Assembly: GCA_017457625.1 (NCBI GenBank)
Contig: JAFTHC010000132.1
Span: forward strand, 1-46,561
Direction of reading: 5' to 3'
Source of the DNA: Kiritimatiellia bacterium
Lineage (GTDB): Bacteria; Verrucomicrobiota; Kiritimatiellia; RFP12; UBA3636
Length of the DNA stretch: 46,561 nt
Shown: positions 15,744 through 30,283 of the stretch, piece by piece
Numbering within the stretch: the stretch's first letter is position 1
Layout of the letters: each line of letters begins with the position of its first letter
Notes under the pieces: generated by a model
The model's input: the letters and a program-made list of their open reading frames with translations, nothing else
The model's database searches: none
Told to the model about the DNA's origin: nothing
Program-made: the position numbers and the translations under genes

Positions 15744-16014
15744 TCGGCGTTGGAACTCCGGGCGGCGGATAAATGACATTTTGTCGATTAGTCGCCCGGA
15801 GAGCTTCTCATTTTCGGGCGGCTAAACGACAATTCGGCGATTGGCCGCCCGATTTTGCTTGCATTTTCCGGCCGGTCCTGCGAAGATACGGCGCCATGAA
15901 AACGATTGATTTCATCGTCGGCGCGGACGAACTCTTCGCGGACGCCTGACTCCACCAAGCCCGCTCCGCGCGGGCGCGGAAAGCCGCGGTCGCGCGGAAG
16001 GGACTTCCGAAAAG

Positions 16015-16628: not shown

Positions 16629-17588
16629 ATGAACACGAAACTCCCTCCTTGGGACGCCGCGCAGTGGGCGTCCGACTTCTCCGCCGCCTCCAAGGCGCGC
16701 TACGCCGGCGACTATGCCGCCGCCGACACCCTCCACGACCTCCGCGCCCGCGTCTTCGCGGACACCGTCGAGCGCGTCCGCGCGGGCGGATACACCCTCG
16801 CGGACGGCACGCGCGTCGACCTCCCCTTCTCCCCGACCGTCGGGGACGACACGCGGTTCTACGACCGCGAGCTTCCCGCCGGCCCCGCCGCCGCGCCGGA
16901 CGCCGCGCTGGCGCCCGTCGAGGTCCGCGAGGGCGACTGCCTCGTCGCCGCGCGCGAGCTCGTCGAAGCGGGCGAGGGCGAGGTCTGCGTCCTCAACATG
17001 GCGAGCCGCAGCAACCCCGGCGGCGGCGTCCACACCGGCGCCGGCGCGCAGGAGGAGCACCTCTTCCGCTCGTCGGACTACTTCCGCTCGCTCTACCGGT
17101 TCGTCGACTACGGCGCGTCCTACGGCGTCCCGCGCGCGGCGGAGTCGTATCCGCTCGACCGCGACCACGGCGGCGTCTTCTCGCGCGGGGTCACGGTCTT
17201 CCGCGGCCCGGAGCGCGAGGGCTACCCCCTCCTCGCAAAGCCGTGGCGGTGCAACTTCGTCGCCGTCCCGGCCATTTCGAACCCCGCCACGGTCCCCGGC
17301 CCGGATGGCGCCCCGCGCCTGACGCCCGCGATGGAGGCGGCGACGCGGCGCAAGATTCGCGCCATTCTCCGCATCGCCCGCGAGAACGGGCAGCGGGCGC
17401 TCGTCCTCTCGGCGTTCGGCTGCGGCGCGTTCCGCAACCCGCCGCGCCACATGGCCGAGCTCTTCCGCGACGAGCTCGCCGCCCCGGAGTTCCGCGCCGC
17501 GTTCGACCGCGTCGTCTTCTCCGTCATCGACGACCACAACGCCCGCGGCGAGGGCAACGTGAAGCCCTTCCGCGAGGTCTTCGTGTAG
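16629..17588 (+). CDS. microbial PARG-like macrodomain protein (TIGR02452 / DUF2263 type)
   Basis: VLNMASRSNPGGGVHTGAGAQEEHLFRSSDYFRSLY and LVLSAFGCGAFRNPP are the hallmark motifs. It is in frame with ORF 15906..17588. The start was set at MNTKLPPW after the promoter. Confidence 0.8.
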   Translation: MNTKLPPWDAAQWASDFSAASKARYAGDYAAADTLHDLRARVFADTVERVRAGGYTLADGTRVDLPFSPTVGDDTRFYDRELPAGPAAAPDAALAPVEVREGDCLVAARELVEAGEGEVCVLNMASRSNPGGGVHTGAGAQEEHLFRSSDYFRSLYRFVDYGASYGVPRAAESYPLDRDHGGVFSRGVTVFRGPEREGYPLLAKPWRCNFVAVPAISNPATVPGPDGAPRLTPAMEAATRRKIRAILRIARENGQRALVLSAFGCGAFRNPPRHMAELFRDELAAPEFRAAFDRVVFSVIDDHNARGEGNVKPFREVFV

Positions 17589-17631
17589 CGGCCCCGCGCG
17601 CCGTGGCGAGGCTCCGCCACGGCGCGGGTGG

Positions 17632-17661
17632 TTGGACTTTCCGCTTCGGTTCTGGTAGCAT
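17632..17661 (+). promoter_or_regulatory. possible sigma70-type promoter for the ART-like/NADAR pair
   Basis: TTGGAC (17632-17637), 18 bp, TAGCAT (17656-17661). It is preceded by a 12-bp GC hairpin (17597-17626). Confidence 0.35.
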
Positions 17662-17715
17662 TCCGTTCCGTTCTCCCCACCTGCGGAAACAGTCGCCATG
17701 TAAAAATCCTCCCTG

Positions 17716-18336
17716 ATGAAAGCGCCGGAGGCATCCGTCTTCTACCACGGCACGTCGGCCGCGCCGTTCGGCCAGTTTTCTCTCGGCCATGCGCTCGAGG
17801 GCGACGGAAAATGCAAGTTCGGCTACGGCGTCTACGTCACGGAAAGCTACGAGTCCGCCCGGCTCTACGCCGTGAAGAGCAAGGCCGGCGGGGACTGCCT
17901 CGTCTACACGGTCGAGATTCCCGCGCGCACCGCGGACAACTGGATCGCGTTCGGCGAACCGGTTCCGACGCCCGTGCTCGCGAGGGCGCGCAAGTCGCTT
18001 GGCGCCGACATCCCCGCGAAAGCGGCGGCCGACGGCAAGGAGTTCCGAATCTTCCTCGCGTGCCGTCTCGGGGGGACGAAAAAGCCGACGTTCGACGGCG
18101 AGAAGAGGGCATCGGCGTTCCTCGACGGCATCGGCGTCGACTTCATCATCTGGCCCTTCAACTGGAAGAAGGGTCCGGACAGGCGCTTCCTGCCCCCGTT
18201 CAACCGCGCCGTCCTCGACGCCGGCAAAGTCCGCATCGTCTCCGCAGACCGGCTCGACCGCGATGCGGCCTCTGCAAAGAAGCCGAAGACCGTTGTCGTC
18301 GAGACGATCGCCGCCAAGGACCTCCCGCAGGGCTGA
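17716..18336 (+). CDS. candidate mini PARP-like (H-Y-E class) ADP-ribosyltransferase
   Basis: FYHGT (His motif) followed by GYGVYVTESYESARLYA. This aligns residue by residue with the PARP donor-loop pattern G-[IV]-Y-[FV]-[AT]-[DE]-x3-[KS]-[SA]-x2-Y. It is flanked by PARG-like and NADAR genes. The catalytic Glu is not assigned. Confidence 0.4.
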   Translation: MKAPEASVFYHGTSAAPFGQFSLGHALEGDGKCKFGYGVYVTESYESARLYAVKSKAGGDCLVYTVEIPARTADNWIAFGEPVPTPVLARARKSLGADIPAKAAADGKEFRIFLACRLGGTKKPTFDGEKRASAFLDGIGVDFIIWPFNWKKGPDRRFLPPFNRAVLDAGKVRIVSADRLDRDAASAKKPKTVVVETIAAKDLPQG

Positions 18337-18340
18337 CCCG

Positions 18341-18928
18341 ATGCGCGTCTCCGACTCCATCCGGCTCCACTACCCGCAGTACTGGGGGTTCGAGACGTAT
18401 CCGGCGGACCGCGCCTGCGCGGTGTCGAAGATCGCCGCGGAGTGGGGCGTGTTTTCCAACTTCGCGCGGACGCCGCTCGTGGTGGACGGCGTGCCGTTCG
18501 ACACGTCCGAGCGGCTCTTCCAGACGATGAAGTTCACGGACCCGGGGGCCCGCCGCGCCGTCTACGGGAAGAAGGGCAACCCGAAGATGACGGCGAAGCA
18601 CTGGCAGAAGGAGGGCTTCCTGCGGCCGGACTGGGCGGAGCACGACGTCGACGCGATGAAGTTCTGCCTGATGGAGAAGTACCGCCAGAGCGCGGTCTTC
18701 CGCGCGGAGCTCGCGCGCAGCGGCGACCGCCCGATCGTCGAGGACCAGACGACCTTCCCGCGCCGCACCCCCGACGCGTGGGGCGTCAAGCGCACGCCCG
18801 ACGGCGCGTCCTTCAGCGGCCCGAACCTCCTCGGGCGCCTCCTGATGGAGCTGCGCGCGGGCGAGGGCGCGCTCGCATACACGCGTCCCCTGCCGGAGGG
18901 CATGGCGTCGTTCCGCGACCTGGCCTAA
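18341..18928 (+). CDS. NADAR (YbiA/DUF1768) family protein
   Basis: FSNFARTPLVVDGVPFDTSERLFQTMKF, DAMKFCLMEKYRQSAVFRAEL and PDAWGV fit the NADAR pattern. The ATG at 18341 lies 4 nt after the upstream stop codon. Confidence 0.75.
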   Translation: MRVSDSIRLHYPQYWGFETYPADRACAVSKIAAEWGVFSNFARTPLVVDGVPFDTSERLFQTMKFTDPGARRAVYGKKGNPKMTAKHWQKEGFLRPDWAEHDVDAMKFCLMEKYRQSAVFRAELARSGDRPIVEDQTTFPRRTPDAWGVKRTPDGASFSGPNLLGRLLMELRAGEGALAYTRPLPEGMASFRDLA

Positions 18929-19056
18929 GCGACATCGCCCGAGGTAGTTAAACGGTCTTTTCGGGCCGCGGGCGGGGCGGCCGCCGAAACTTTTTCCACG
19001 GTGCGATTGAAAAAAAGCTTGAATCCAGGTGGAAGCTGAGCATCATAGACGGTATC

Positions 19057-20778
19057 ATGAGCAATCCACCCATCATCCACCCGACCACCACCATGCACAC
19101 CTGTCTCGCCGCCGGCTCGATGCCGATGGACATCGTCCAGAAGAAGGCGCCCGATGGCTCCGTCCGCCGCCTCTACGTCCATGTCGGGGGCACGCCCGGC
19201 AACGTCGCGACCATGCTCGCGGCGCAGTTCGGCTGGCGCGCGATGCCCCTCGCGCGCTTCGACGGCTCCGGCTGGGGCCGCCGCCTCGTCGAGGACCTCG
19301 AACGCTACGGGGCCGACACGCGCTTCGTCTCCGCCGGGGGCGACGGCGGCACGACGCTCTTCGTCGAGACGCACCGGGTTGACCGGGACGGCAACCCCAA
19401 GATATCCTACCGGCCGCAGACGCCGCGGGGCGGACCGTTCACAAATTACCGATATCTCAACAAGAAGGACGTCCCGGTCTTTCTGGCCGGACTCGGCGCC
19501 GACCTCCCCGACGTCCTCTTCTACGACCAGCCCGCTGCCGGCCTCCGGACGCTCGCGGAGGCGCTTCGCCCCCGCGGGACGCTCGTCTTCTTCGAGCCGC
19601 CCACTCGGTGCGACCCGAAGGACCTCGCGAAGGCCCTCGCGTCCGCCGATATCGTCAAGGCCTCCAGCGAGGCCTACCGCGACGCGGCCTTCCTGGAGGG
19701 GCTCTCCGACAAGCTCGTCGTCCGGACGATGAACAAGGAAGGGCTCCGCTTCAACCTCCGCGGGGCGGGGTGGCGCACCCTCCCGCCCGTCGCGAACCCC
19801 GACTTCGTCGACGGGGAGGGTGCCGGCGACTGGACCTCGTCCGCCCTCCTCGCCGCGCTCAGCCGCCGCGGCCTCCCGCGCATCGCGGACCTCGACGAGG
19901 CGACCGTTGCGGACTGCCTCCGCGAGGCCCAGGAGACCGCCTCCCGCAGCGTCGGATTCCTCGGCTCCAAGGGGATGCTCGAGGACCGCTTCCCCACGCC
20001 GGCGGCGTGGCTGGACCCCGCGCAGGACCCCGCGCCGCCGCCCGCCCCGCCGTCCGGGCCGAAGAAGGAGAAGGCCGCTCCGGCGCCCGTCGACTGCAGC
20101 AGGGGCGGCACGATGTTCTGCCCGCCGACGCCGTTCGAGAAGAAGACCGGCTGGACCGTCTTCCTCGCCGGCCCGATCGGCGGCGCGCCGGAGTGGCAGA
20201 AGTCCGTCCCGAAGCTCGCCGAGAAGCTTGGGCTCGAGGGCGTCACGTGGCTCAACCCGCGCGGAAAGCACCTCTCCCACCGCCCGCAGGTCGAGTGGGA
20301 GACGCGCGGGCTCCGCGTCTGCGACTACATCCTCTTCTGGGTTCCGGAGCAAGCCAAGCCGGCCGACAAGCCCTACGCGCTCACGACGCGGATGGAGCTG
20401 GCGGAGAACCTCGCCCGCGGCAAGCGCATCGTGCTCGGCGTCGACCCGGATGTCCGCTGGATGCGCCACGCGAAGTTCCTCGCGGAGCGCTACGGCGTGA
20501 AGAAGGTCCACGCGACGCTCGAGGAGTGCCTCCGGGCGCTCAAGCGGGAGCTCGCCCGCCGCAAGCCGGCCGAGCGCGACGTCGACGGCCCCGCATGGGT
20601 CGCGGAGACGCTGGCCCGCCATCCAGTCTGCGTGGACGACCTCGCCCGGAACCAACTCCTGGTGGAGCAGTGGAACCGGGCGTTCACCCCGGGCGATGTC
20701 GTCCGCGTCCGCGGCGATCTCCCCGACGTGGACGCCTCCCTGCTCCCGCTCCTCAACGGTGACATCCGGTTCGGTTGA
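19057..20778 (+). CDS. fusion protein: PfkB-family sugar/nucleoside kinase + nucleoside 2-deoxyribosyltransferase-like domain
   Basis: N-terminal half: VGGTPGNVATMLAAQFG and DGEGAGDW (PfkB signatures). C-terminal half: VFLAGPIGGAPEW...CDYILFWVP...TTRMELA (NDT-like Rossmann pattern). Confidence 0.6.
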   Translation: MSNPPIIHPTTTMHTCLAAGSMPMDIVQKKAPDGSVRRLYVHVGGTPGNVATMLAAQFGWRAMPLARFDGSGWGRRLVEDLERYGADTRFVSAGGDGGTTLFVETHRVDRDGNPKISYRPQTPRGGPFTNYRYLNKKDVPVFLAGLGADLPDVLFYDQPAAGLRTLAEALRPRGTLVFFEPPTRCDPKDLAKALASADIVKASSEAYRDAAFLEGLSDKLVVRTMNKEGLRFNLRGAGWRTLPPVANPDFVDGEGAGDWTSSALLAALSRRGLPRIADLDEATVADCLREAQETASRSVGFLGSKGMLEDRFPTPAAWLDPAQDPAPPPAPPSGPKKEKAAPAPVDCSRGGTMFCPPTPFEKKTGWTVFLAGPIGGAPEWQKSVPKLAEKLGLEGVTWLNPRGKHLSHRPQVEWETRGLRVCDYILFWVPEQAKPADKPYALTTRMELAENLARGKRIVLGVDPDVRWMRHAKFLAERYGVKKVHATLEECLRALKRELARRKPAERDVDGPAWVAETLARHPVCVDDLARNQLLVEQWNRAFTPGDVVRVRGDLPDVDASLLPLLNGDIRFG

Positions 20779-20802: not shown

Positions 20803-20836
20803 CTCCGGCGCGGCACCGCCGCGCCGGAGTTTTTTT
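20803..20836 (+). terminator. intrinsic terminator
   Basis: 12-bp stem CTCCGGCGCGGC-ACC-GCCGCGCCGGAG (20803-20829), then T7 (20830-20836). Confidence 0.8.
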
Positions 20837-20843: not shown

Positions 20844-20876
20844 CGGTGTGAACAGCCCGTTCCGGCTCCGCTTTCC
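20844..20876 (+). promoter_or_regulatory. bipartite motif CGGTGTGAA-N14-TCCGCTTTCC (candidate alternative-sigma promoter), copy 1
   Basis: Both half-sites recur at 24895-24928 with N15 spacing. Each copy sits just after a terminator T-tract and upstream of a sigma-factor-containing unit. Confidence 0.4.
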
Positions 20877-20934
20877 TTCATGGAGGGCCCCTTGCATGAC
20901 GCGCCGGGCCCGACCGAACGAAAGGAATCAAATC

Positions 20935-21489
20935 ATGTACGGCACCATCCAGACCTCCGCCTCCGAAACCGGCCTCGACCTCCTCCGCGCCCACGTGGGC
21001 GGCGACGAAGCCGCGACGCTCCGCCTCTTCCGCGCCTTCGGACCCTGGCGCTTCGGCTCCCTGCTCTGGATGAAGGAAGAGCTCCTCGGCGCCCGTTGCG
21101 CCGAGTGGAAGGTCCGCGGGGACCGCACTGCCCATCCGGTGGTGTCCCTCGCGGCCAAGGCTCCGGAGTCCCTCGACGAGCCGATTCCGGTCCTCGCCGG
21201 CACCAGCACCGGCGGGAGGAAGGAGTTCTTCTCCGTGTCGGGCGTCACCGACGACGGTCGCGTCACGCGCTTCGTCCCCTACGCCCTCGCGTGGGTGACG
21301 CCCCGCGAGCTGCTGTGGCGGGACCCCGCGTGCAAGGACCTCATGGAAGGGTGGCCCTGGGAGGTCCGCCGCGCGTGGCCCAACGCGACGCTCCCGCGCC
21401 TTTCCGCCGCCAACCGCGAAGCGCTTCGCGCCTATCTGGGCGGGAACTGGCTCTTCGCCGCCGCCGTTCGCGCGAACGCGGCCGCTTGA
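20935..21489 (+). CDS. hypothetical protein (184 aa)
   Basis: In frame with ORF 20848..21489. The ATG at 20935 is preceded by AAAGGAA. No motif recognised. Confidence 0.55.
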   Translation: MYGTIQTSASETGLDLLRAHVGGDEAATLRLFRAFGPWRFGSLLWMKEELLGARCAEWKVRGDRTAHPVVSLAAKAPESLDEPIPVLAGTSTGGRKEFFSVSGVTDDGRVTRFVPYALAWVTPRELLWRDPACKDLMEGWPWEVRRAWPNATLPRLSAANREALRAYLGGNWLFAAAVRANAAA

Positions 21490-21514
21490 CGCGCGCGCGC
21501 CTTTTTGGGACACT
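21486..21514 (+). promoter_or_regulatory. possible internal sigma70 promoter, leaderless configuration
   Basis: TTGACG (21486-21491), 17 bp, GACACT (21509-21514). The ATG at 21522 lies 7 nt downstream. Confidence 0.35.
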
Positions 21515-21521
21515 TGTCCGC

Positions 21522-22475
21522 ATGAGCAACGACCTCGACGATCTCGTTCCCGGCGGGCGGACTTTCCCGCCGACCAGCCCGACGCTCCTGAAAGCCGCCG
21601 CCGCGCGGGACGACGGCGAGCCGCACGACGAAACGGCGGTCCGGACGTTCGTCGACGTCTACCGGGCCGCGCTCGACCATTTCGTCGAATTCCAGTCCGG
21701 ACAGGCGGAATGGTCCGACAAGGACGACATCGTCCTCGGCGTGTTGCGGGAAGTCCTCTCCGCCCTGCCGGGTTTCGAACGCCGCCGCGAAGGTTCGTTC
21801 CGGGCCTTTCTCAAGCGGGTTGCCGTCCACCGCCTCACGGACGCACGTCGGTCGGAAATGGCTCGGGAACGGCGCGCCCGCGAAGCGATGGACGCCCTTC
21901 CAAGTTTCGGGAACGCCGTCGCCGCCGAGGGAATCGCGGCGGCGAACGACGAGGAGAATCTCGGCTACGCGGCGCCGTCCGGTCCGTCCGCGTTCGTCTC
22001 CGGAAGCGGAACGGGCCTGGACGACGCATGGAATCTGCTCCTCTCGGCCGCGGCGCTCGCGCGGACGTTCCGCACCGCGAAGGGGTTGAGCGCGAAATCC
22101 GTCTCCATCTTCCTCCATCGGTTCCGCGGCGACGAACCGAAGGAGATCGCGGCGAAGTTCATGGTCGGGGTTTCGCAGGTTTCGAACGTCAGGGAACGGG
22201 TTTCCGCCGGCGCGAACGCAGCCCTGGCCGAAGCGGTCCGGAAGGCCGGCGGCTCGCCGCAGGACGACCCGGAAGGCGTCCTGCTTGCCCTCTTCGACGA
22301 CCGACCGCGGTTCCGCGACGCGCTCAAAGCCCGGCTCGAAACGTTCGACGACCCGGACGCCGTCCTCGCCTTCGTCGGAAAACTCGAGCGCGTCATGCAG
22401 GACCGCTGGGGCGCGACGCACCTCGGCTCCACCAAGCTGGCCGACCTGACGACCCCCGGAGAAACCGCACCATGA
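21522..22475 (+). CDS. ECF-like sigma-70 family factor with long sigma2-sigma4 linker and C-terminal extension
   Basis: Sigma2-like FRAFLKRVAVHRLTDARR and sigma4-like EPKEIAAKFMVGVSQVSNVRERV. It is the in-frame tail of ORF 20775..22475. Confidence 0.6.
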   Translation: MSNDLDDLVPGGRTFPPTSPTLLKAAAARDDGEPHDETAVRTFVDVYRAALDHFVEFQSGQAEWSDKDDIVLGVLREVLSALPGFERRREGSFRAFLKRVAVHRLTDARRSEMARERRAREAMDALPSFGNAVAAEGIAAANDEENLGYAAPSGPSAFVSGSGTGLDDAWNLLLSAAALARTFRTAKGLSAKSVSIFLHRFRGDEPKEIAAKFMVGVSQVSNVRERVSAGANAALAEAVRKAGGSPQDDPEGVLLALFDDRPRFRDALKARLETFDDPDAVLAFVGKLERVMQDRWGATHLGSTKLADLTTPGETAP

Positions 22476-22515
22476 ACGAACCCGCGCTTCCGCGCACCAC
22501 CGACCGCTGCCGGCC

Positions 22516-23523
22516 ATGACGGATGACGACATCCAGCAAGTTCTCGACCGTGGGACCGTCGGATCGGGTCCCGTCTACCGCATCGAGGAATGTCTCGGGC
22601 ACGGCGGCATGGGCGCCGTGTTCAAGGCCTACGAGAAGAGCATCGACGATCCGGTGGCCTTGAAGGTCGAGTTCCTGTCGGACGATCCGGACGAGCCCGA
22701 CTTCCGGTCGCCCGAAACGAAGGAAGAAGACCGGGAGAACGCCGTGGAACGCTTCCAGCGCGAGGTCATGCTCGCGTCGCGGCTTTCCAAGCGGAATCCG
22801 GCAATCGTGAGGGCGTCCCATTTCCAGATCGAACGCGGTCCGGACGGAAATCCCGTCCGGCTGCTCTACGAAATGGAGCAGTGCCTCATGATGCGGGAGG
22901 ACGCGCTGGGAGTCTGCCGGGCCTGGCGCGTGTACCCGCGGCCGGCCTGGTCCGGAAACTGGCCGAGGAGCGTGACGTTGCGGAACGTCATCCGGGAGGC
23001 GAACGCGTCCGGCGCCGGTTGTCTGCCGCAGGACGCGGTCGCCCGGATCGCCTTGACGCTCGTCGGGGCGCTCCGGACGGTGCACGACCGGGGCGTGGTC
23101 CACTTCGACGTGAAGCCGGAGAACGTCCTCGTCTGCAAGGGCGGCCGGTTGAAGCTGGCCGACTTCGGCCTCGCGAAACTGGCTTCCTGGGCGGCGGCCG
23201 AATCCACGACCGGCGGGACCCGTGGCTACATGGCGCCGGAGCAGTATTGGCCGGCCGCCAGGAAGGTCAAGGCCGGACCTCCGGCCGACTACTACGCGCT
23301 CGGCGTCGTCCTGAACGAGCTGCTCACGGGCCGGCGCATGGCCTGGAACACGACCGACGACGAGTGGCGGAATCCGTCCGATTCGGGAGACACCTTCCAT
23401 CCGGTCTGCCGGAACTGGGACGTCCTTCTCAAGGGCATGATGGAAAAAGACCCGCGGCGCCGGCTGGCCGACCCGGACCTGCTGCTCTTCGAATTCGGCG
23501 AAATCGCGAAAGGCCGGTGCTGA
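22516..23523 (+). CDS. Ser/Thr protein kinase (non-RD: HFD catalytic loop)
   Basis: GHGGMGAVFKA (G-loop), ALKV (VAIK-like), VVHFDVKPENVLV, LADFGLAK and GTRGYMAPE. Confidence 0.85.
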   Translation: MTDDDIQQVLDRGTVGSGPVYRIEECLGHGGMGAVFKAYEKSIDDPVALKVEFLSDDPDEPDFRSPETKEEDRENAVERFQREVMLASRLSKRNPAIVRASHFQIERGPDGNPVRLLYEMEQCLMMREDALGVCRAWRVYPRPAWSGNWPRSVTLRNVIREANASGAGCLPQDAVARIALTLVGALRTVHDRGVVHFDVKPENVLVCKGGRLKLADFGLAKLASWAAAESTTGGTRGYMAPEQYWPAARKVKAGPPADYYALGVVLNELLTGRRMAWNTTDDEWRNPSDSGDTFHPVCRNWDVLLKGMMEKDPRRRLADPDLLLFEFGEIAKGRC

Positions 23524-23524
23524 C

Positions 23525-24823
23525 ATGGCGGACACCTCGAACGAAGACGTCTGGCCCGTTTCCGCGGCCGACGCGGTCGCGCTCGGCAAGCGCCTCGAAG
23601 ACGCCGATCCCGCGGCGGCCTACGGACTCTACGCGGCCGCGGCGCGGCGCGGCGACGCGGAAGGCGCGTTCCTCGCGGGCAAGGACCGTTTCTACGGCAT
23701 CGCGCATCCGGTCGACGACGCCAAGTCCGAGGCGTTCCTGCGCATGGCCGCCGAGAACGCGTCCGCGCCGGATGCGGTCCGCGCCGACGCGTTCGACAGC
23801 CTGGGGCTGCTGTTCCTGCGGCGGAAGCAGACCGCCCGCGCCCGGAAGTATTTCACGCGGGCGTCGTCGTTCGGCTCGCTCGACTCGCTCGACAACCTCG
23901 GCAAAATGGCCCGGGACGCCGGCGACCCGGACAAGGCGCTCGGGTATTTCTCCCGCGCGGACAAGGACGCGCGCGAACGGGCCGCCGGCGCCTCGCCGGC
24001 CGAACGGGACCGGATCGACCTGGACGCCGCCTGGGCGCGGCTCCACCTGGCGTCCTTCTTGCCCTGGTGGCACGGCGATTCGGACTCTTCGGCGAAGGAA
24101 GCCCGCCGGCTGCTCGCCGACGTCGAACGGCTGCAGGACGTGTTCCTCTGGAAGGACATCGGCGACGCCTATCTGGACAGTGAATTCGAAGCGGCGGATC
24201 CGGACGCCGCCGAGACGTGGTACCGCCGGTCGGCCGAAGGCGGCTTCGCGGACGCCCAGGTCGCGCTCGCGCGGTTCCTTCTTTCCCGGAAGAAAACGCC
24301 GGAAGCCGCCGTCGAGGCGGTCGACTGGCTCGGCAAGGCCTGCGCGAAAGGCTCCTCCGAGGCGTTCCGCCTGCGCGCGGAATGCTACGCGCGGGGCGAC
24401 GGCGTGCCGCAGAACTGGTCGCGCGCGACGGTCGAATACCGCCTCGCGGCCGACTGCGCGGGCCCCGGACAGGACGACTGGATCGACGAAGCCTACCGCG
24501 ACGGCCGTTTCGGCTGGCGCCACGGCGAGGACGTCCTCGCGTGGATCCGCGCCCGCGCCGACTCCGGCGCCGTCTGGGCGCTGCGCCTATGCGTCGGGGA
24601 GACGATGCGGGAGGAAGACCCGGACGCGTTCTGGCGGTTCCTCGCCGCCGCCGCGGAGAAGGGCGTTCCGTCCGCCCAGTTCGAGCGGGCGCGCGAGCTC
24701 CTGTTCGCGTCGGACGCGCCCGCCGCCGCCGCCATGTTCCGCGCGTTCCTGGACAATCCGGACGACAAGGACGCGGAGACCGTCTCCCTCGCGAAGAAGT
24801 GGTTGGCCCACCTGGAGCGGTGA
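23525..24823 (+). CDS. Sel1-like/TPR repeat protein
   Basis: Repeated A-x-G-x6-LG/LA-x-Y/F-G-type units (GDAEGAFLAGKDRFYG, GSLDSLDNLGKMA, GFADAQVALARFLL, GSSEAFRLRAECYARGDGVPQNW). The ATG lies 1 nt after the kinase stop codon. Confidence 0.7.
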   Translation: MADTSNEDVWPVSAADAVALGKRLEDADPAAAYGLYAAAARRGDAEGAFLAGKDRFYGIAHPVDDAKSEAFLRMAAENASAPDAVRADAFDSLGLLFLRRKQTARARKYFTRASSFGSLDSLDNLGKMARDAGDPDKALGYFSRADKDARERAAGASPAERDRIDLDAAWARLHLASFLPWWHGDSDSSAKEARRLLADVERLQDVFLWKDIGDAYLDSEFEAADPDAAETWYRRSAEGGFADAQVALARFLLSRKKTPEAAVEAVDWLGKACAKGSSEAFRLRAECYARGDGVPQNWSRATVEYRLAADCAGPGQDDWIDEAYRDGRFGWRHGEDVLAWIRARADSGAVWALRLCVGETMREEDPDAFWRFLAAAAEKGVPSAQFERARELLFASDAPAAAAMFRAFLDNPDDKDAETVSLAKKWLAHLER

Positions 24824-24851
24824 CGCTTCGTCCCGGGCGGCGCAACGGCTC

Positions 24852-24888
24852 CGGCGCGGTCGCGGAAGCGGCCGCGCCGATTTTTTTT
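24852..24888 (+). terminator. intrinsic terminator
   Basis: CGGCGCGG (24852-24859), 12-nt loop, CCGCGCCG (24872-24879), A, then T8 (24881-24888). Confidence 0.7.
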
Positions 24889-24894
24889 CCGCGG

Positions 24895-24928
24895 CGGTGT
24901 GAAAACGCATGGAGAGAGTCCGCTTTCC
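24895..24928 (+). promoter_or_regulatory. bipartite motif CGGTGTGAA-N15-TCCGCTTTCC, copy 2
   Basis: See 20844-20876. It lies 21 nt upstream of the ATG at 24950. Confidence 0.4.
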
Positions 24929-24949
24929 GGAGTGAAAGGGATTCAATCC

Positions 24950-25573
24950 ATGCAAAACTCCGAAAAGAAATCCGCCGCGCTCCGCGGCACCTCCACGAAA
25001 GAATCCGCCCGCGAGGCGGACATCCTCCGGCTCGTTGCCGACAACCAGGGCCTCGTCCGCGCCGAGGCCGCCCGCGTCCTCGCGACGTGGGCTCCCGAAA
25101 ACGATGATGACGCCCGGGAGGAATGGTTCCGGGAACTGGTCCAGGCCGGCCAGCCGGGCCTCCGCCGCGCCGCGGAGAAATTCGACCCCGCCCGCGGGAC
25201 GGCGTTCTCCACGTATGCCGTGCCGTGGATTTTCAAGTTCGTCCACGAGGCCGCGGAGGAGCTCCGCGAGACCTACTGCCACGTCTCTTGCGACGCGGCG
25301 GCGGACGGCGCCGGCTCCGCGGAACTCGTCCCGGACGAGGACGCCGACGACCCCGCCGAGACCGTCGCGCGGGCGTCGGACTGCGCATGGGTCCGCGGGT
25401 GCCTCGCGGAACTCCCGGCCCGCGAGCGCCGCGTGCTCGAGCGCCGTTTCGGCATCGGGTCGCGTCCCGAGTCGACGTTTGCCGAAATCGCCGCGTCGGA
25501 GGGCGTCTCCGTCCAGTGCATCCACCGCGTCTACCAGCGCGCCCTGGCGCGGATGCGCCGGTCCGCCGCCTAG
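24950..25573 (+). CDS. sigma-70 family RNA polymerase sigma factor (small, group 3/4-like)
   Basis: Region 2 GLRRAAEKFDPARGTAFSTYAVPWIFKFV and region 4 ERRVLERRFGIG...TFAEIAASEGVSVQCIHRVYQRALARMR. The start was set at MQNSEKK after GAAAGGG. Confidence 0.8.
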   Translation: MQNSEKKSAALRGTSTKESAREADILRLVADNQGLVRAEAARVLATWAPENDDDAREEWFRELVQAGQPGLRRAAEKFDPARGTAFSTYAVPWIFKFVHEAAEELRETYCHVSCDAAADGAGSAELVPDEDADDPAETVARASDCAWVRGCLAELPARERRVLERRFGIGSRPESTFAEIAASEGVSVQCIHRVYQRALARMRRSAA

Positions 25574-25577
25574 CGCC

Positions 25578-25635
25578 CCGCGGCTCCGCGGGCGTCCGGC
25601 ACCCGCGGAGCCGCGGAACCGCGCGAGATTTTTTT
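25578..25635 (+). terminator. long GC hairpin plus T-tract (probable terminator)
   Basis: 15-bp stem CCGCGGCTCCGCGGG (25578-25592) pairs with CCCGCGGAGCCGCGG (25602-25616). T7 at 25629-25635. Confidence 0.55.
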
Positions 25636-25643
25636 CGGTGGTG

Positions 25644-25672
25644 GTGAATTCGCCGCCTTTGCCCGGTAGAAT
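25644..25672 (+). promoter_or_regulatory. sigma70-type promoter for the AAA+ operon (leader ~108 nt)
   Basis: GTGAAT (25644-25649), 17 bp, TAGAAT (25667-25672). Confidence 0.55.
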
Positions 25673-25690: not shown

Positions 25691-25765
25691 GACCGCCAGA
25701 CCGATCGACCATCCGACCGCCCGACCGATAGACCGATAGACCGATCGACCATCCGACCATCCGAC
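25691..25765 (+). repeat. 7-8-nt tandem array (CCGACCAT / CCGATAGA / CCGATCGA units) inside the 5' leader
   Basis: GACCGATCGACCATCCGACCGCCCGACCGATAGACCGATAGACCGATCGACCATCCGACCATCCGAC read directly. Related arrays lie at 31134-31160 and 35154-35192 (reverse complement). Confidence 0.8.
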
Positions 25766-25786: not shown

Positions 25787-28228
25787 ATGTACGACGCACT
25801 CAGAAAACTGACCGAAACCCCCTCGCACTACCTGCGCGAGAAGAAACTCGAATTCCTCCGCAACGCCGTCCGCTATCTCGACCGGGACATCCCGGACGAC
25901 GATTTCTTCCAGGACGTCGCCGACCACGTCGCCTCGAACGAGGAGGCCCGCCGCCTCTGCAGCGGGGCGTTCCTCGCCGACGGCATGGACGAACAGGGCC
26001 GCCCGAAAGCCGGCTCCCGTCCGCCCGCCCGGGAAGAACATCCTCCCCGCCGCCGCTTCCCGGTGCCGGACGAGGACATGGACCTCGACGCCATCTTCTG
26101 CGGCGAGGACGACGACGAGCTCGAGGAGGACGCGCCCCGCGGCGCCGACAAGCGCGACGCCGCCGCGAAGGAGGGCCCCTTCCGCCGCGGCCGGCCGATC
26201 GCGGCCGGTTTCCGCGACGTGTGGCGCTCCACCGACGGCCTGCGCGCGCTGCGCGGCTCCCTTGCGGACCATCTCGGCCGCCGGCTCGAAGCGATGCGCC
26301 TCGAACGTCCGCGCCGCGACCCCGTCAAGACCCGCGTGTCCGAACTCAAGAAGCTGCTGGGCCTCTCGGACGCCGAGACGGACCTGCTCGTGTTCCTGCA
26401 CCTGTTCTACTCGGACCGGTGCGACTGGTTCCGCGGCCTCGCCACGGAACCGTTCCCGAGCACCCGCATCAAGCCCGCGCTCCACAAGCTCTTCGCCATG
26501 GTGACGGGCTCGACCTCCACCGCCGTGGCCGACGCGCTTTCCGCGGACGGCCCGCTCGTGCGCTTCGGCGCCGTCTTCGAAGACGACTACGGCGTCGCCC
26601 GCTCCGTGACGCGCTACCTCACGGGCGTCGCGAAAGGCGACCTGCGCAGCTCGTTCTACGCGCCGCTCGAGGGCGAGACGCTCCCGTGGGAGTTCTTCCC
26701 GGAGGAGCTCCGCAAGCACGGCGACACCATCGCGGCGCTCGTCCGCGCCGACCGCGGCGGGCGCGGCCTCGACGTCCTGCTGCACGGCGCGGCGGGCGCG
26801 GGCAAGACCAGCTTCGCCCGGGCGCTCGCCGCGCGGCTCGGCATGCGCGCCGTCGGCATCGCCATGGACGGCGACGGCCCCGGCGCGACCGACCGCAAGG
26901 CGCGCCGCGACATCCGCGTGGGCGCCGGCGAGCAGACCGCGTTCCGCCTCGGCGCGCTCGCCGTGGCCGAGCGCGAATGCGACCCGGCGCGCGACGTCAT
27001 CGTCGTGGACGAGGCCGACATGCTGCTCGGCCGCGCCGGCGCGAACCGCCTCAACGACACGCTCGACCGCGGCCGCTGCGTCCGCATCTGGCTCGGCAAC
27101 CTCGACCCGGAGGCGGAGCTGCCCGAGTCCAACCTCCGCCGCTTCGACTACGCCGTCGGCTTCGAGCCGCTCGGTGCCCGCGAACGAGCCGCCATCTGGC
27201 GCAACTGCACCGGCAAGGCCGGCCTGGCGGACGTCTTCGCGGACGCCGACCTGGAGGACTTCGCGGAGCGCTTCCCGGTTTCCGCGGGCATCGTCGCCCG
27301 CGCGTGCGCCAACCTCGCCGCCACCGGCCTCGCCGCGCGCGAAGGGCGCGACGCGGCGAAGGCGTTCGCCGAACGGCTCCTCGAGAGCCACGCCAGGCTC
27401 CTCGGCGTCCGCTTCCGCGCCGCCGCCGAGCCCAAGCGCGTCTCCGCGGGCTACGTCCTGGACGGCCTCGACGTGAAGGGCGACGTGCCGCTGGCCGACG
27501 TCCTCGCCGCCGCCAGGGAGCACCTGCGCCGCCTCAAGGAAGGGGACGAAGGCGACGGCGCCGCGCTCCGCGACCCGCCGCGTCTCAACGTGCTCCTCTC
27601 CGGCCCCCCCGGCTGCGGCAAGACCGAGTTCGTGAAATGGCTCGGCGAGCAGCTCGGGCGCAAGGTCGTCGCCCTCGGCGCCAGCGACCTCAAGGACAAA
27701 TTCGTCGGCGAAACCGAGAAGCGCATCGCCCGCGCGTTCAAGGACGCCGAGCGCGACGGGGCCATTCTGTTCTTCGACGAAGTCGACTCGTTCCTGCGCT
27801 CCCGCGCGGGCGCGGCGCACTCCTGGGAGGTCTCGCAGACCAACGAACTGCTGGCGCGCCTCGAGGACTTCAAGGGGCTCTTCGTCGCGGCTACGAACTT
27901 TCCGTCTTCGCTCGACCCGGCCGTGCTGCGCCGCTTCACGTTCAAGCTCTCCTTCGGCTACCTCTCGGACGAGGGCAAGCGCGTCTTCTTCGAGCGCTAC
28001 TTCGGCGACCCGCTCACGGAGGCCGAAGCCGCGGAACTGCGCTCCATCCCGGACCTCTGCCCCGGCGACTTCCGCACCGTGCGCCAGCGCCTGGACTACC
28101 TGCCGGGCGGCCGCACCAACGCGCGCCGCCTCGCGGCGCTGCGCGAGGAGTCCGGGCGCAAGGCCGCCCTGCCGCCCGGCGAGAACTTCGAGCGCCCCGT
28201 CCGCGGGCGCCTCGGCTTCGGCGCGTAG
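25787..28228 (+). CDS. tandem AAA+ ATPase (classic AAA/CDC48-like second module)
   Basis: Module 1: LLHGAAGAGKTSFARAL and VIVVDEAD. Module 2: LLSGPPGCGKTEFV, ILFFDEVD and the second region of homology ATNFPSSLDPAVLRRF. Confidence 0.85.
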   Translation: MYDALRKLTETPSHYLREKKLEFLRNAVRYLDRDIPDDDFFQDVADHVASNEEARRLCSGAFLADGMDEQGRPKAGSRPPAREEHPPRRRFPVPDEDMDLDAIFCGEDDDELEEDAPRGADKRDAAAKEGPFRRGRPIAAGFRDVWRSTDGLRALRGSLADHLGRRLEAMRLERPRRDPVKTRVSELKKLLGLSDAETDLLVFLHLFYSDRCDWFRGLATEPFPSTRIKPALHKLFAMVTGSTSTAVADALSADGPLVRFGAVFEDDYGVARSVTRYLTGVAKGDLRSSFYAPLEGETLPWEFFPEELRKHGDTIAALVRADRGGRGLDVLLHGAAGAGKTSFARALAARLGMRAVGIAMDGDGPGATDRKARRDIRVGAGEQTAFRLGALAVAERECDPARDVIVVDEADMLLGRAGANRLNDTLDRGRCVRIWLGNLDPEAELPESNLRRFDYAVGFEPLGARERAAIWRNCTGKAGLADVFADADLEDFAERFPVSAGIVARACANLAATGLAAREGRDAAKAFAERLLESHARLLGVRFRAAAEPKRVSAGYVLDGLDVKGDVPLADVLAAAREHLRRLKEGDEGDGAALRDPPRLNVLLSGPPGCGKTEFVKWLGEQLGRKVVALGASDLKDKFVGETEKRIARAFKDAERDGAILFFDEVDSFLRSRAGAAHSWEVSQTNELLARLEDFKGLFVAATNFPSSLDPAVLRRFTFKLSFGYLSDEGKRVFFERYFGDPLTEAEAAELRSIPDLCPGDFRTVRQRLDYLPGGRTNARRLAALREESGRKAALPPGENFERPVRGRLGFGA

Positions 28229-28231
28229 GGG

Positions 28232-28260
28232 ATGAAACGAACGCCTCGCCCCGGTATACT
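28232..28260 (+). promoter_or_regulatory. sigma70-type promoter, leaderless configuration (GTG start)
   Basis: ATGAAA (28232-28237), 17 bp, TATACT (28255-28260). The GTG at 28267 lies 6 nt downstream. Confidence 0.5.
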
Positions 28261-28266
28261 TGCATC

Positions 28267-29526
28267 GTGACCGTCCTTCCCTTCCAGCCCGAACGCTTCC
28301 TCTACGCCGCGGCCGGCGACGTGCACGGCGACCTGCCGGCACTCGTCGCCGCGGTGGATGCCGTGCGCGCGACGGCCGCGGAGAGCGGGCGCGAGGCGCG
28401 CGTGTTCGTCCTCGGCGACGCGATCGACCGCGGCCCGGACTCCGCCGGCTGCGCCGCGTTCCTGATGCGGCTCGCCCGCGGGGAAGATCCGGCGCGGCGG
28501 GACGCGCGACTCGTCTTCGTGTGCGGCGACCACGACATCGCCCTCTCGTGGAACCCCGCCACGCGGACGTTTTCGTCGGTGGTCGATCCCGGCGACTGGG
28601 CGGAGGAGCTCAATGTGCTCCCGGAGGACCATCCCGACCGCGCCGTCGCGCGGACGTGGATCGAGTTCGTCCGCGAAGCGCCCGCCGCGGTTCTGCTCCG
28701 CGGGGAGACGGAGGCCGTGCTGCTCGCGCACGGAGCCGTTCCGCACGCGGATCTGCTGCCGCGCCTGAAGACCCTCGACGACCTCGGCTCGCCCGAATGC
28801 GACCGCGACTTCGCCTGGTGCCGCCTCGCCGCCGCGCCGCGCAAGATCCCCAACCGCGCCTCGCTCTTCTGCGACGTCGGGCTCGACGACCTCGCGGACT
28901 TCCTCGACCGGCTCGCGGAGCTCGCCGCCGGCGAGGCTACGGGAGAGGGCTCCGCCCTCCCCGAACCCCACCCGCCGCTGTTTCCGGAAGCACCGCAAGG
29001 GCCGCACGGCGCGGCTGCGCCCGCAGAGCCCCGCATTCGCTTCGCCCCGCATCGTGGGGAGGGGTTCGGGGAGGGGCGCAGCCCCTCGCCCGTCCGGTTG
29101 TTCGTCCACGGCCACGAGCACGCGGAGGCGGGGTGCGAGGCCGTGCCCGTGCGCGGCGGGCGCACCGCGTGGACCGTGACCACGTTCCGCGGGAGGGGCG
29201 TGTTCGGGGCGATCCGGCCGGCGGTGCTGCTTCTCGATCACGCAGAGACCGCAGAGATTGAATCTCACGCAGAGAGCGCAGAGGGCGCAGAGAGTGTTTC
29301 TCACGCAGAGATCGCAGAGGGCGCAGAGATTGAATCTCACGCAGAGATCGCAGAGGGCGCAGAGATTGAATCTCACGCAGAGAGCGCAGAGATCGCAGAG
29401 AGTGGATCCCTCGCCGGTTCCCGAGCAGCGGAGCCGCGAGACCCGGCCGATGCAGGATCGGCGCCCGCGCGGACGCGCGGCGCGGCGATCCTTGCGAAGC
29501 CGCTCTTCCTGGAGGACCTGGCGTGA
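28267..29526 (+). CDS. calcineurin-like metallophosphoesterase / PPP-type protein phosphatase with acidic HAE(S/I)AEGAE repeat tail
   Basis: GDVHGD, GDAIDRGPDS, CGDHD, AHGAVPH and VHGHEH fit the metallophosphatase motif series. It is the in-frame tail of ORF 26221..29526. Confidence 0.7.
   Translation: MTVLPFQPERFLYAAAGDVHGDLPALVAAVDAVRATAAESGREARVFVLGDAIDRGPDSAGCAAFLMRLARGEDPARRDARLVFVCGDHDIALSWNPATRTFSSVVDPGDWAEELNVLPEDHPDRAVARTWIEFVREAPAAVLLRGETEAVLLAHGAVPHADLLPRLKTLDDLGSPECDRDFAWCRLAAAPRKIPNRASLFCDVGLDDLADFLDRLAELAAGEATGEGSALPEPHPPLFPEAPQGPHGAAAPAEPRIRFAPHRGEGFGEGRSPSPVRLFVHGHEHAEAGCEAVPVRGGRTAWTVTTFRGRGVFGAIRPAVLLLDHAETAEIESHAESAEGAESVSHAEIAEGAEIESHAEIAEGAEIESHAESAEIAESGSLAGSRAAEPRDPADAGSAPARTRGAAILAKPLFLEDLA
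29239..29402 (+). repeat. in-frame tandem repeat (36-nt units made of NNCGCAGAG 9-mers; perfect duplicate 29302-29337 / 29338-29373)
   Basis: CACGCAGAGATCGCAGAGGGCGCAGAGATTGAATCT occurs twice, flanked by degenerate copies. It belongs to the same 9-mer family as 1-140 (reverse complement) and 5603-5620. Confidence 0.85.
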
Positions 29527-30209
29527 GCGCCTCGCGCACCTACGTGGCGGAGTGCGAGCTCTGCCGCACGAAGTTCGAGACCGACCCGGGCGAATGCCCG
29601 GTGTGCGGGGGCGCGTCGATGCGCGCGATCCGCGAAGCGGTCGCCGCAGCGGAGGACATCCCCGTACCGACGGGGCGGACGAAGCCGCCGCGGGCGTTGC
29701 GGCGGAAGACTCCCCCAGCCTCGCTTCGCTCGGCAGCCCCCTCAGGGAGGGGGCCGGCTTCGCCGAAGGCGCCTGCGGCGCCGTTCGCGGGTTTCAGGCC
29801 GGCCTCGCCGCCGCGCGGGCCGGACGGGCGTTTCCTGCCGCGCAAGAAGGTGGGTACGTTGCCCCGCGGACGCGGCGCGCCGGTCGTTCCTCGTCCCGCG
29901 TCCCACCCCGCGCGGGGCCTGTCGCCGGCGGCGAAGGCGGCCGAGGCGCTGCGGCGCGCCGCGGGCGGCGGCGCCTATCGCATCGGCTCGCGCGGCGGAA
30001 CGACGACCATCCACATCGACGTGCGCGACGCGGCGGCGCGGCTCCGCGAGGCGCGCCGGGCGGCCGCCGACAGCGGCCGGGAATACCGGCGGGCGCGCGC
30101 CGCGCTGCGCGAAGCCCGTGCCGCGCTCTCCGCCACGCGCAACCGCGGCAACGCCGTCGAACGCGCCCTCCGCCGCATCGCCGCCTGGCTCGAAGACCTG
30201 TTCGTCTGA
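29523..30209 (+). CDS. zinc-ribbon protein with disordered Pro/Arg-rich centre and C-terminal coiled-coil-like segment
   Basis: CELCRTKFETDPGECPVCGG (CxxC-x10-CxxC). The GTG start overlaps the upstream stop codon (GTGA, 29523-29526). Confidence 0.5.
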   Translation: MSASRTYVAECELCRTKFETDPGECPVCGGASMRAIREAVAAAEDIPVPTGRTKPPRALRRKTPPASLRSAAPSGRGPASPKAPAAPFAGFRPASPPRGPDGRFLPRKKVGTLPRGRGAPVVPRPASHPARGLSPAAKAAEALRRAAGGGAYRIGSRGGTTTIHIDVRDAAARLREARRAAADSGREYRRARAALREARAALSATRNRGNAVERALRRIAAWLEDLFV

Positions 30210-30283
30210 TCCGAAGACGACGAGACGACGCGAATGACGTGCGACCGTCCGACCATTTGAACAAACAACCCAAGGAACCCCAG

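Follow-up and report, generated by a model that had tools for sequence, protein, structure and literature searches.

A conserved five-gene cassette pairing an ECF-type sigma factor with a kinase-Sel1 pair and a reduced RpoD-like sigma factor: a possible two-tier sigma cascade in a Kiritimatiellia bacterium

The DNA analysed here, referred to as the window (46,561 nucleotides; contig JAFTHC010000132.1 of assembly GCA_017457625.1, from a Kiritimatiellia bacterium), carries a cassette of five genes, G1 to G5, that includes two sigma factors, a Ser/Thr kinase and a Sel1-repeat protein. The clustering of these genes is not due to chance, as the set recurs in three diverged lineages and in two gene orders. 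The cassette was tentatively interpreted as a two-tier sigma cascade with a kinase-Sel1 input, self-contained and cytoplasmic, within an island of defence and conflict genes; we regard this as quite possible, at somewhat less than an even chance. Gene calls were made from GC3 frame analysis together with lists of open reading frames (ORFs), and these supported the following five genes.

20935-21489, plus strand: G1, 184 aa, PemK/MazF-like core fold, weakly supported
21522-22475, plus strand: G2, 317 aa, extracytoplasmic function (ECF)-type sigma factor
22516-23523, plus strand: G3, 335 aa, Hanks-type Ser/Thr kinase
23525-24823, plus strand: G4, 432 aa, Sel1/TPR-repeat protein
24950-25573, plus strand: G5, 207 aa, compact RpoD/RpoS-derived sigma factor

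The transcription units were deduced from the following terminators.

20803-20835, plus strand: intrinsic terminator, 12-bp stem with 11 GC pairs followed by T7, closing the upstream PfkB/deoxyribosyltransferase unit
24852-24887, plus strand: intrinsic terminator, 12-bp stem with 11 GC pairs followed by T8, ending the G1-G4 unit
25580-25635, plus strand: terminator-like hairpin and T-run 3' of G5, read from the sequence

The third was not listed by a simple terminator scan because its T-run begins 14 nt past the stem. From these positions, the units are apparently G1-G2-G3-G4, then G5 alone, then a block led by a double-AAA+ ATPase (the AAA block). Only 1 nt separates the stop codon of the kinase from the ATG of Sel1, and from this junction G4 is predicted to be translationally coupled to the kinase. 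No transmembrane segments were detected in any of the five proteins. The initial annotation of this DNA had reported the five genes, the 1-nt junction, a terminator, an HFD catalytic loop in G3 and a second non-RD kinase, and all of these were located where claimed by GC3 frame analysis, ORF lists and motif reading.

The evidence for a conserved set came from comparison of the window with related loci, which fell into three lineages, all of them from ruminant metagenomes and uncultured.

Lineage A, the window: G1-G2-kinase-Sel1-G5
Lineage B, L007/L008: PARG-G1-G2-kinase-Sel1, G1/G2 and G2/kinase each overlapping by 4 nt; the contig stops short of any G5
Lineage C, L016-L019 and the fragments L009, L010 and L012: G1-G2-G5-kinase-Sel1-RadC-...

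Pairwise identities across the three lineages were 62-90% for G1, the most conserved member, 41-50% for the kinase, 36-80% for G2 (36-40% between distant lineages) and 47-48% for G5 (A versus C only), with essentially none for Sel1 beyond single repeats. The kinase, Sel1 and both sigma factors were found together in every lineage with enough sequence (the window; L016-L019). From this co-occurrence, conserved despite low identities and a changed gene order, it was deduced that the set was kept together through deep divergence with one rearrangement. G1 is always immediately upstream of G2, its stop overlapping the G2 start in L007, and the 1-nt kinase/Sel1 gap is shared by the window and L007, this tight junction being kept while the Sel1 sequence diversifies. 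A kinase-less lineage (L009, L010 and L012, with a long acidic G2 linker) was considered and rejected because these contigs stop at G5 and are part of lineage C, where, as in L016, the kinase comes after G5.

G2 is a real but orphan ECF-type sigma factor. This was deduced from three independent lines, namely its HMMER relatives, profile-profile alignment and structure matches. An exhaustive HMMER search with the family profile found only two 50%-identity clusters at E<1e-30, and beyond the family, across a score gap from E<1e-148 to 1e-17, about 1750 ordinary ECF-size sigma factors; the nearest database relatives sampled carry Sigma70_r2, Sigma70_r4_2 or Sigma70_ECF domains. The hhalign comparison of G2 with eleven ECF-like sigma factors gave a probability of 99.85% and an E value of 1e-30 over residues 11-256, spanning sigma-2 through sigma-4. 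The top PDB structural matches of the AlphaFold model were all ECF sigma factors, full-length ECF structures aligned over approximately 212 columns, and the modelled sigma-2 matched sigma-2 of sigma-E and SigC with TM scores of 0.69-0.72 and an rmsd of 2.6-3.0 Å. Sigma-4 is present and a sigma-3 domain is absent, as in the ECF class. The orphan character is seen in the direct matches: Pfam Sigma70_r2 was sub-threshold (21.7 bits against a cutoff of 24; E 1.7e-4), all NCBIfam matches were far below cutoff (for example, TIGR02937 at 18.3 bits against 42.9), and the G2 profile found no match in the PDB by sequence. The L016 orthologue lies above the Sigma70_r2 cutoff at 44.4 bits. In overall build, sigma-2 is followed by a disordered linker of about 40-60 aa (approximately residues 125-164 in the AlphaFold model), sigma-4, and a conserved extension of about 75 aa with three helices whose tail ends in RWGATHLGSTKL. 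The earlier description of an ECF-like factor with a long sigma2-sigma4 linker and a C-terminal extension is thus supported by hhalign, the AlphaFold model and the HMMER relatives.

How G2 might be activated was considered next to ECF43, the only phosphorylation-dependent ECF group that has been characterised by experiment and whose defining trait is the replacement of the acidic DxxD of sigma-2.2 by uncharged residues with a phospho-acceptor Thr (QTTA/STTA) (PMC13147305, PMC8999054). In G2, the acidic sigma-2.2 motif is kept as D66-K-D-D69 and is invariant in the family, proteins P0003 and P0004 reading DKDDIVQE. The phosphorylation-dependent mode proposed earlier is therefore not supported in its ECF43 form. 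Since the DxxD is kept, the kinase, if it acts on G2, was deduced to work elsewhere: on the linker as in EcfK, on the C-terminal extension, or via G1. Ser162 is the sole Ser/Thr of the linker that does not vary within the family, and together with the HLGSTKL tail it is a candidate phosphosite. Phosphorylation-dependent activation of G2 as such is suggested by the gene neighbourhood. A 507-aa sigma-2/kinase fusion (P0040) was recovered in a representative search, in which an ECF-like sigma-2 is joined to a Hanks kinase domain, 30% identical to G3, and a hydrophobic segment comes after the kinase. This is a generic planctomycete-style fusion, and it offers weak Rosetta-stone support at best for sigma-2/kinase links in related sigma families.

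G3 was assigned from its Pfam Pkinase match (1.4e-32, 113.6 bits) and from the Hanks motifs, all of which could be read from the sequence (G28-H-G-G-M-G33, K50 in VALK, H196-F-D198..N203, D216-F-G and APE); it is a soluble, active-looking Hanks-type Ser/Thr kinase. It had been described as a non-RD kinase, and the HFD loop is indeed present. However, the orthologues in L007 and L016, 41-48% identical to G3, carry HRD, so that HFD was deemed a local substitution confined to the window lineage rather than a conserved trait. The second kinase (31258-32592) has a HAD and DFS active site. G4 matched Pfam Sel1 at 32.0 bits against a cutoff of 30.7, and its positional equivalents scored 58.5 bits in L007 (610+ aa) and 93.2 bits in L016 (554 aa). 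Nothing beyond single repeats could be aligned among the three Sel1 proteins, and G4 is, as judged from its sequence, a cytoplasmic Sel1/TPR-repeat protein that is hypervariable between lineages.

Alternatively, the kinase and its Sel1 partner might work on their own in defence or signalling, as stand-alone defence kinases do; they would then lie beside the sigma genes in a crowded island and regulate neither sigma factor. G3 matches the defence-kinase models PD-T4-6 and mad6 at 1e-37 to 5e-39, G2 keeps its acidic core-binding motif, and in L016 the pair follows G5 behind its own promoter of the ordinary class (TTGAAT-N17-TAGAAT) and continues into RadC. Nevertheless, all three lineages, though deeply diverged and not alike in gene order, have retained the pair together with G1-G2, the G2 stop overlaps the kinase start in L007, and in the 40-nt gap between G2 and the kinase in the window neither a terminator nor a promoter was detected. 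We consider this explanation somewhat unlikely, and the two-tier cascade with a kinase-Sel1 input is preferred.

The wiring proposed for that cascade comes from a promoter motif. The pattern GTGTGAA-N15/16-CCGCTTTCC occurs exactly twice in the 46.5-kb window (20846-20876 and 24897-24928), where 0 copies were expected, and the two copies define the following candidates, each just past a terminator.

20845-20876, plus strand: P1, candidate G2-dependent promoter, GGTGTGAA-N16-CGCTTTCC, upstream of G1
24896-24928, plus strand: P2, candidate G2-dependent promoter, GGTGTGAA-N17-CGCTTTCC, about 22 nt upstream of the G5 ATG

The cross-lineage consensus is GGTGTGAA-N16/17-CGCTT, with invariant boxes and differing spacers, and it precedes G1 in all three lineages and G5 in A and C. 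Motifs of the P1 type precede G1 in L007/L008, L009 and L016, and those of the P2 type precede G5 in L009, L010, L012 and L016-L019. The motif is absent upstream of G5-family genes in the four contexts that are without G1-G2 (L013-15, L020-22, L103-108). The boxes GAA(A/C) and CGC and the 16-17-nt spacing fit an ECF-type promoter, and autoregulation is a known and usual ECF trait (PMC7826278). Taking these together, we infer as the simplest reading that G2 reads the motif and drives both its own operon and G5. The distribution of the motif, present with G1-G2 and absent without G2, speaks for an autoregulated G2 that drives G5. In L017 (1592-1825, compared with L016:200-362), the G2-type promoter and most of the G1 leader are lost, which looks like a deletion between two GTCCGAACG repeats.

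The cascade could also run in reverse if not G2 but G5, or some unrelated factor, were the reader of the motif; G5 would then regulate itself and drive the G1 operon. The -35 box does resemble the ordinary -35 element, which an RpoD-like sigma-4 might bind, and the unusual residues YAVPWIFK in region 2.4 of G5 could alter -10 specificity. This is quite improbable, because the motif is missing at every G5-family locus without G1-G2, including that of the 72%-identical G5 in L020, and because the -10 box CGCTT has no A/T-rich TAnnnT character in an architecture that is typical of ECF promoters. The reading in which G2 acts first is thus kept.

G5 was assigned to the RpoD/RpoS type. It matched Pfam Sigma70_r2 (30.6 bits) and Sigma70_r4 (40 bits), both above cutoff; its best NCBIfam matches were the RpoD, RpoS and SigF models, and a phmmer search of the PDB returned SigA and RpoS at 5e-13 to 1e-11. 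Its sigma-2 (LVQAGQPGLRRAAEKFDPARGTAFSTYAVPW) and sigma-4 align best to SigA, RpoD and RpoS, and the segment ELVPDEDADDPAE just ahead of sigma-4 aligns to the 3.2/4.1 junction. The protein therefore consists of sigma-2.1-2.4, a short sigma-3.2-like linker and sigma-4, without a sigma-1 or sigma-3 domain; the window protein gave no Sigma70_r3 or Sigma70_r1_2 match, and a weak r3 fragment (E 3e-4) was seen in its L012 orthologue. The earlier view of this gene as a compact sigma-70 family factor was upheld; by the Pfam, NCBIfam and phmmer results it is not an ECF sigma factor. The G5 family is restricted to its clade, with approximately 18 clusters at 90% identity, and a scan of GTDB with the G5 profile returned only generic RpoD/RpoS-like sigma factors at no more than 38% identity. 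That ECF-like two-domain sigma factors evolved independently from group 3 sigma factors is a possibility raised in the ECF re-classification (PMC7826278), and from its sequence G5 looks like another two-domain sigma factor arisen by reduction.

Sigma factors of the G5 type that are without G1-G2 occur in three settings: beside the double-AAA ATPase also present in the window, in both orientations (L020-22, L103-104), beside ligA (L013-15), and beside homologues of the genes at the left end of the window (L105-108). In two of the four contexts lacking G1-G2, a sigma-54-type element (TGGCAC-N5-TTGCT or GTGCT) lies right ahead of the G5-family gene, as follows.

L013:6521-6536, L014:6406-6421, L015:2989-3004, L103:5968-5983 and L104:1889-1904: sigma-54-type promoters (TGGCACGGCAGTTGCT or TGGCACGCGCCGTGCT), the sole pattern matches in those loci

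These arrangements suggest that reduced sigma factors of the G5 family may generally form a second tier under another sigma factor.

For G1, the start at 20935 is supported by the ribosome-binding site AAAGGAA, which is conserved at the nucleotide level across lineages and forms part of a conserved leader.

20877-20934, plus strand: G1 5' leader, conserved, with a possible hairpin and the ribosome-binding site

Within this leader, two blocks, TTCATGGAGGGC and CGGGCCC..CCGAACGAAAGGAA, do not vary between the lineages. A hairpin was predicted by RNAalifold with weak covariation, and the leader had no Rfam match. The G1 sequence matched nothing in Pfam, NCBIfam, PADLOC or PHROG, its profile gave only a chance match against the PDB by sequence, and no relatives were found in GTDB species genomes, IMG/VR or JGI metagenomes. 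The AlphaFold2 model (pLDDT 67) matched MazF chains in the PDB with probabilities of 0.96-0.98, TM to target of 0.60-0.66 and E of about 0.05, and PemK-like phage proteins in BFVD with a best E of 9e-4. A PemK/MazF-like core fold is thus weakly supported; with regard to membership of the MazF/PemK family, the likeness is one of fold alone, and no antitoxin-like gene is evident. The protein is predicted to be cytoplasmic, and although listed as hypothetical in the initial annotation, it may be the real partner of G2.

Gene neighbours hint that the function of G1 is tied to ADP-ribosylation. At L011:649-1823, a G1-like gene is followed by an ADP-ribosylglycohydrolase (ARH). Ahead of the cassette in the window, at 16629-20778, lies an ADP-ribose-centred set comprising a poly-ADP-ribose glycohydrolase (PARG), a weak ART-PolyVal-like protein, NADAR, and a PfkB kinase fused to a nucleoside-deoxyribosyltransferase-like domain.

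16629-17588, plus strand: microbial-type PARG, Pfam PARG_cat_microb 2e-29

A PARG gene immediately precedes G1 in L007/L008 and L009 and follows the cargo genes in L016; PARG is a recurrent neighbour of the cassette rather than a proven member.

These properties of G1 bear on a further alternative, in which G1 is the primary regulator of G2 (an unconventional anti-sigma factor or co-factor) or a toxic output (a MazF/PemK-like endoribonuclease induced by G2), and the kinase acts on G1 and not on the sigma factor. Its conservation, its fixed place before G2 with the overlap in L007, the fold matches from two independent libraries (PDB and BFVD), and the occurrence of G1-like genes beside both PARG and ARH are consistent with such a role. 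The fold match is nevertheless weak, with no family match at the sequence level, and neither an antitoxin-like gene nor a known anti-sigma domain was detected. We consider it rather unlikely that G1 is central in this way, and the cascade headed by G2 was retained as the working model.

Starting from the observed gene content, domain identities, five-gene conservation and motif distribution, the following course is proposed. Its conjectural parts are which sigma factor reads the motif, what the kinase phosphorylates, what G1 does and which genes G5 controls. In the first tier, G2 would recognise GGTGTGAA-N16/17-CGCTT and transcribe its own operon (G1-G2-kinase-Sel1 in the window lineage), giving positive feedback, and would also transcribe the monocistronic G5 gene. 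In the second tier, G5 would redirect RNA polymerase to output genes, the leading candidate for these being the block headed by the double-AAA ATPase. The input would be the soluble kinase with its fast-evolving Sel1 partner, the latter binding a variable intracellular ligand, and the kinase would modify either G2 (in the linker or the C-terminal extension) or the co-encoded G1, thereby releasing G2 activity.

The candidate output was suggested by conserved gene adjacency. The double-AAA ATPase adjoins G5 orthologues in L020/21 (G5 then AAA; 72% and 83% identity) and in L103/104 (AAA then G5; 74-81% and 55% identity), so that the adjacency of a G5-type sigma factor and a double-AAA ATPase is seen in three arrangements.

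25787-28228, plus strand: double-AAA+ ATPase, Pfam AAA 1e-35, second ATPase domain resembling IetA/IteA

The promoters of the flanking genes did not extend this link. The G2-type promoter was not found upstream of 25787-32592 or 16629-20778 in a search of the window; flanking genes instead carry an ordinary class, TTGAAA/TTGAAT-N17-TAGAAT, with at least six copies in the window, some of them upstream of genes outside the cassette.

25641-25672, plus strand: ordinary-class promoter of the AAA operon, GTGGTGAAT-N17-TAGAAT, member of repeat family D7, conserved in L020
205-236, 2074-2105, 2725-2756, 5003-5034, 6666-6697 and 25641-25672: repeat family D7 (GTGTTGAAAACGCCGC...CCGGGTAGA(A/C)T)

Sequences of the D7 type appear to be the organism's ordinary promoter class, with a -35 of TTGAAA and a -10 of TAGAAT or TAGACT, and no G5-specific promoter could be separated from this class in the window. 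The initial annotation had suggested a dedicated switch controlling the neighbouring genes, with a regulon that might include 25787-32592 and 16629-20778. The dedicated switch is favoured by the conserved ECF-type promoter at G1 and G5, which points to a dedicated sigma cascade; the proposed regulon was not recovered at the promoter level, where both flanking blocks showed the TTGAAA-N17-TAGAAT class and no G2-type motif. As the G2-type promoter is missing at the flanks, the only argument for control of the neighbours is the conserved G5/AAA adjacency. The AAA, vWA and second-kinase genes have 5' leaders filled with short tandem GACCAT(C/T)CGAC / GACCGAT repeats (25691-25765, 30238-30270 and 31127-31167), as does a core-genome phosphorylase gene (35150-35195, minus strand), and the repeats were therefore taken to be a genome-wide leader feature and not an island signal.

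Several points weigh against the proposed cascade. With its acidic sigma-2.2 motif retained, G2 should bind core polymerase without phosphorylation, and G3 fits the generic defence-kinase models no worse than anything else. The own promoter and RadC co-transcription of the kinase-Sel1 pair in L016 could make it an independent unit. The -35 box of the motif resembles the genome's ordinary -35 element GTGTTGAAAAC, so a sigma factor other than G2 might be its reader, and the AAA operon lies behind an ordinary-class promoter, with nothing to mark it as G5-specific. The support is also limited to three lineages, mostly on short contigs.

The surroundings of the cassette, from approximately 2.9 kb to 32.6 kb, have a gene content typical of a defence or conflict island. 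The window has a G+C content of about 70% with a lower-GC stretch at 4-16 kb, and its right-hand third is core genome (a glycogen-phosphorylase-like gene, ClpB/ClpC, a SurA-like PPIase, an FHA protein, IspF, CysS, an SNF2 helicase and NAD kinase). Exact protein matches to the window were found only on ruminant-associated metagenome scaffolds (ENA sets XIEF21-1, WILK20-1 and STEW19-1, and Logan runs). The island genes are as follows.

Left part: Ro60-like vWA protein (DUF2828/DUF7788); C5 methylase with Vsr; LlaJI-type restriction enzyme
Middle part: PARG / ART-like / NADAR / PfkB-deoxyribosyltransferase cluster, then the five-gene cassette
Past the cassette: double-AAA ATPase, calcineurin-like phosphatase, small basic protein, vWA protein and second kinase

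By PADLOC, no full component set of any described anti-phage system was present; generic kinase, AAA and sigma-region matches were the only ones returned, with none for G1, G2 or G4. No Rfam family matched anywhere in the window. The sigma genes might instead belong to a phage or other mobile element and time that element's own expression rather than serve as a host switch, since PHROG sigma families match G5 (9.5e-21) and G2 (1.4e-5) and the surrounding island is variable and carries restriction-modification and ADP-ribose genes. This is barely credible, as the window contains no virion, integrase, replication or tRNA genes, G1 has no relatives in IMG/VR, and G5 paralogues occur in core-genome contexts such as beside ligA.

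A more specific form of the host-switch model would be an infection-sensing circuit. The hypervariable Sel1 protein would sense a phage component and signal through the kinase to the self-amplifying orphan ECF sigma factor, which would induce G1 as an effector and, through G5, the AAA/phosphatase/vWA/kinase effector block; PARG or ARH would protect the circuit by undoing any ADP-ribosylation that a phage imposes on RNA polymerase or the MazF-like protein. We regard this elaboration as quite doubtful.

Other features of the island were noted in passing. A 243-nt direct repeat of 81% identity (2125-2367 and 4474-4716) lies on both sides of the Ro60-like vWA gene and may be a duplicated small gene or an insertion boundary. 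The lower-GC segment at 10369-16527 encodes a C5 cytosine methylase, a Vsr mismatch endonuclease, which is called only in the annotation of the ENA record, and a LlaJI-type restriction enzyme, upstream of which a weak McrB-like AAA_5 signal was seen. Within the C-terminal part of the phosphatase reading frame, a 36-nt tandem repeat of CGCAGAG heptads is present (29241-29420), and 52-nt repeats built from its reverse-complement motif occupy the contig start (1-176). The site of the 36-nt repeat is a run of Ns in the ENA scaffold L001 and is hard to assemble; a length polymorphism of the 36-nt repeat between the window and L001 was rejected, the difference being a scaffolding gap of Ns and not biology. 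A gene annotated by ENA on the minus strand, overlying the phosphatase ORF, finds no support in the GC3 analysis. The small protein encoded at 29523-30209, after the phosphatase and ahead of the vWA gene, is very basic (45 K+R versus 19 D+E) and has a CPVC zinc-ribbon-like start, and the second kinase (31258-32592) has by eye an FHA-like C-terminal region.

Among known systems, the block at 28264-32592 recalls the TerY-P triad of vWA protein, PP2C phosphatase and Ser/Thr kinase (PMC11090510), as it likewise encodes a phosphatase, a vWA protein and a kinase. It does not belong to that system, since its phosphatase is calcineurin-like (Metallophos) and not PP2C. Its kinase has HAD/DFS and the FHA-like C-terminus instead of a zinc ribbon or OB fold, and the block is led by the double-AAA ATPase.

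The description that suits the cassette itself best is that of a dedicated sigma-based switch with a conserved kinase as its putative input, a variant of kinase-associated ECF signalling coupled to a reduced RpoD-like sigma factor. To our knowledge, regulation of an ECF sigma factor by a kinase has been demonstrated for no more than a couple of proteobacterial examples; in each of these the kinase is a membrane protein and the acidic core-binding motif is characteristically lost. In ECF43 (EcfP/PknT of Vibrio parahaemolyticus and EcfK/PknS of Xanthomonas citri), as in the cassette, an ECF-type sigma factor lies beside a Hanks-type Ser/Thr kinase with no recognisable anti-sigma factor, and the kinase is co-encoded with G2 in all three lineages. 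The G2 linker could carry regulatory phosphosites as the EcfK linker does (PMC13147305). In contrast to ECF43, with its QTTA or STTA, G2 keeps the acidic DxxD(xxQE). In ECF43, the partner kinases characterised to date (PknS) are transmembrane sensors, but G3 is soluble. The conserved C-terminal extension of G2 is a further difference, and the cassette adds a Sel1 partner, a protein with a predicted PemK fold and a second sigma factor. The cassette is therefore not an ECF43-type system, and the non-RD feature is incidental. It represents a compact, fully cytoplasmic variant with a predicted promoter and a predicted target, the second reduced sigma factor, so that its wiring is directly testable.

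For the kinase-associated groups of Planctomycetes (ECF59, ECF61, ECF62 and ECF217), regulation by kinases is predicted and not demonstrated. The nearest database relatives of G2 share with these groups a planctomycete-type N-terminal 'TS.TLL' motif and Pfam Sigma70_ECF, but the G2 family is set off from all other ECF sigma factors by the score gap described above. Like ECF41 and ECF42, which have regulatory C-terminal extensions, G2 continues past sigma-4 in a conserved extension that could act in cis; unlike theirs, it is short (75 aa) and contains no SnoaL-like, TPR or other domain by Pfam.

Dedicated sigma factors inside defence islands are also found as the type III-E CRISPR-associated RpoE-like sigma factor and as MzaA of the MZA system. 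G2 had a sub-threshold match to CAS_III-E_sigma (E 0.008) and G5 to the sigma region of MzaA (E 6e-14 to 6e-10), but these matches span generic sigma regions far below the model cutoffs, and no CRISPR, Craspase or Mza components accompany the cassette. If the link to the surrounding defence genes is true, the cassette would represent, besides the type III-E CRISPR case, a further transcription-level control layer for defence islands. It is a general principle, seen for example in sporulation, that sigma factors form cascades, each transcribing the gene of its successor. The predicted G2-to-G5 wiring through a dedicated promoter is of this kind, and other G5-family genes lie behind sigma-54-type promoters; what differs here is the size of about 4.7 kb, an apparently mobile or variable setting, and the pairing of an ECF sigma factor with a reduced RpoD-like one. 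Two-domain sigma factors can, it appears from G5, arise by reduction of RpoD-like sigma factors, and in the G5 clade they are found repeatedly behind specialised promoters of either the G2 type or the sigma-54 type.

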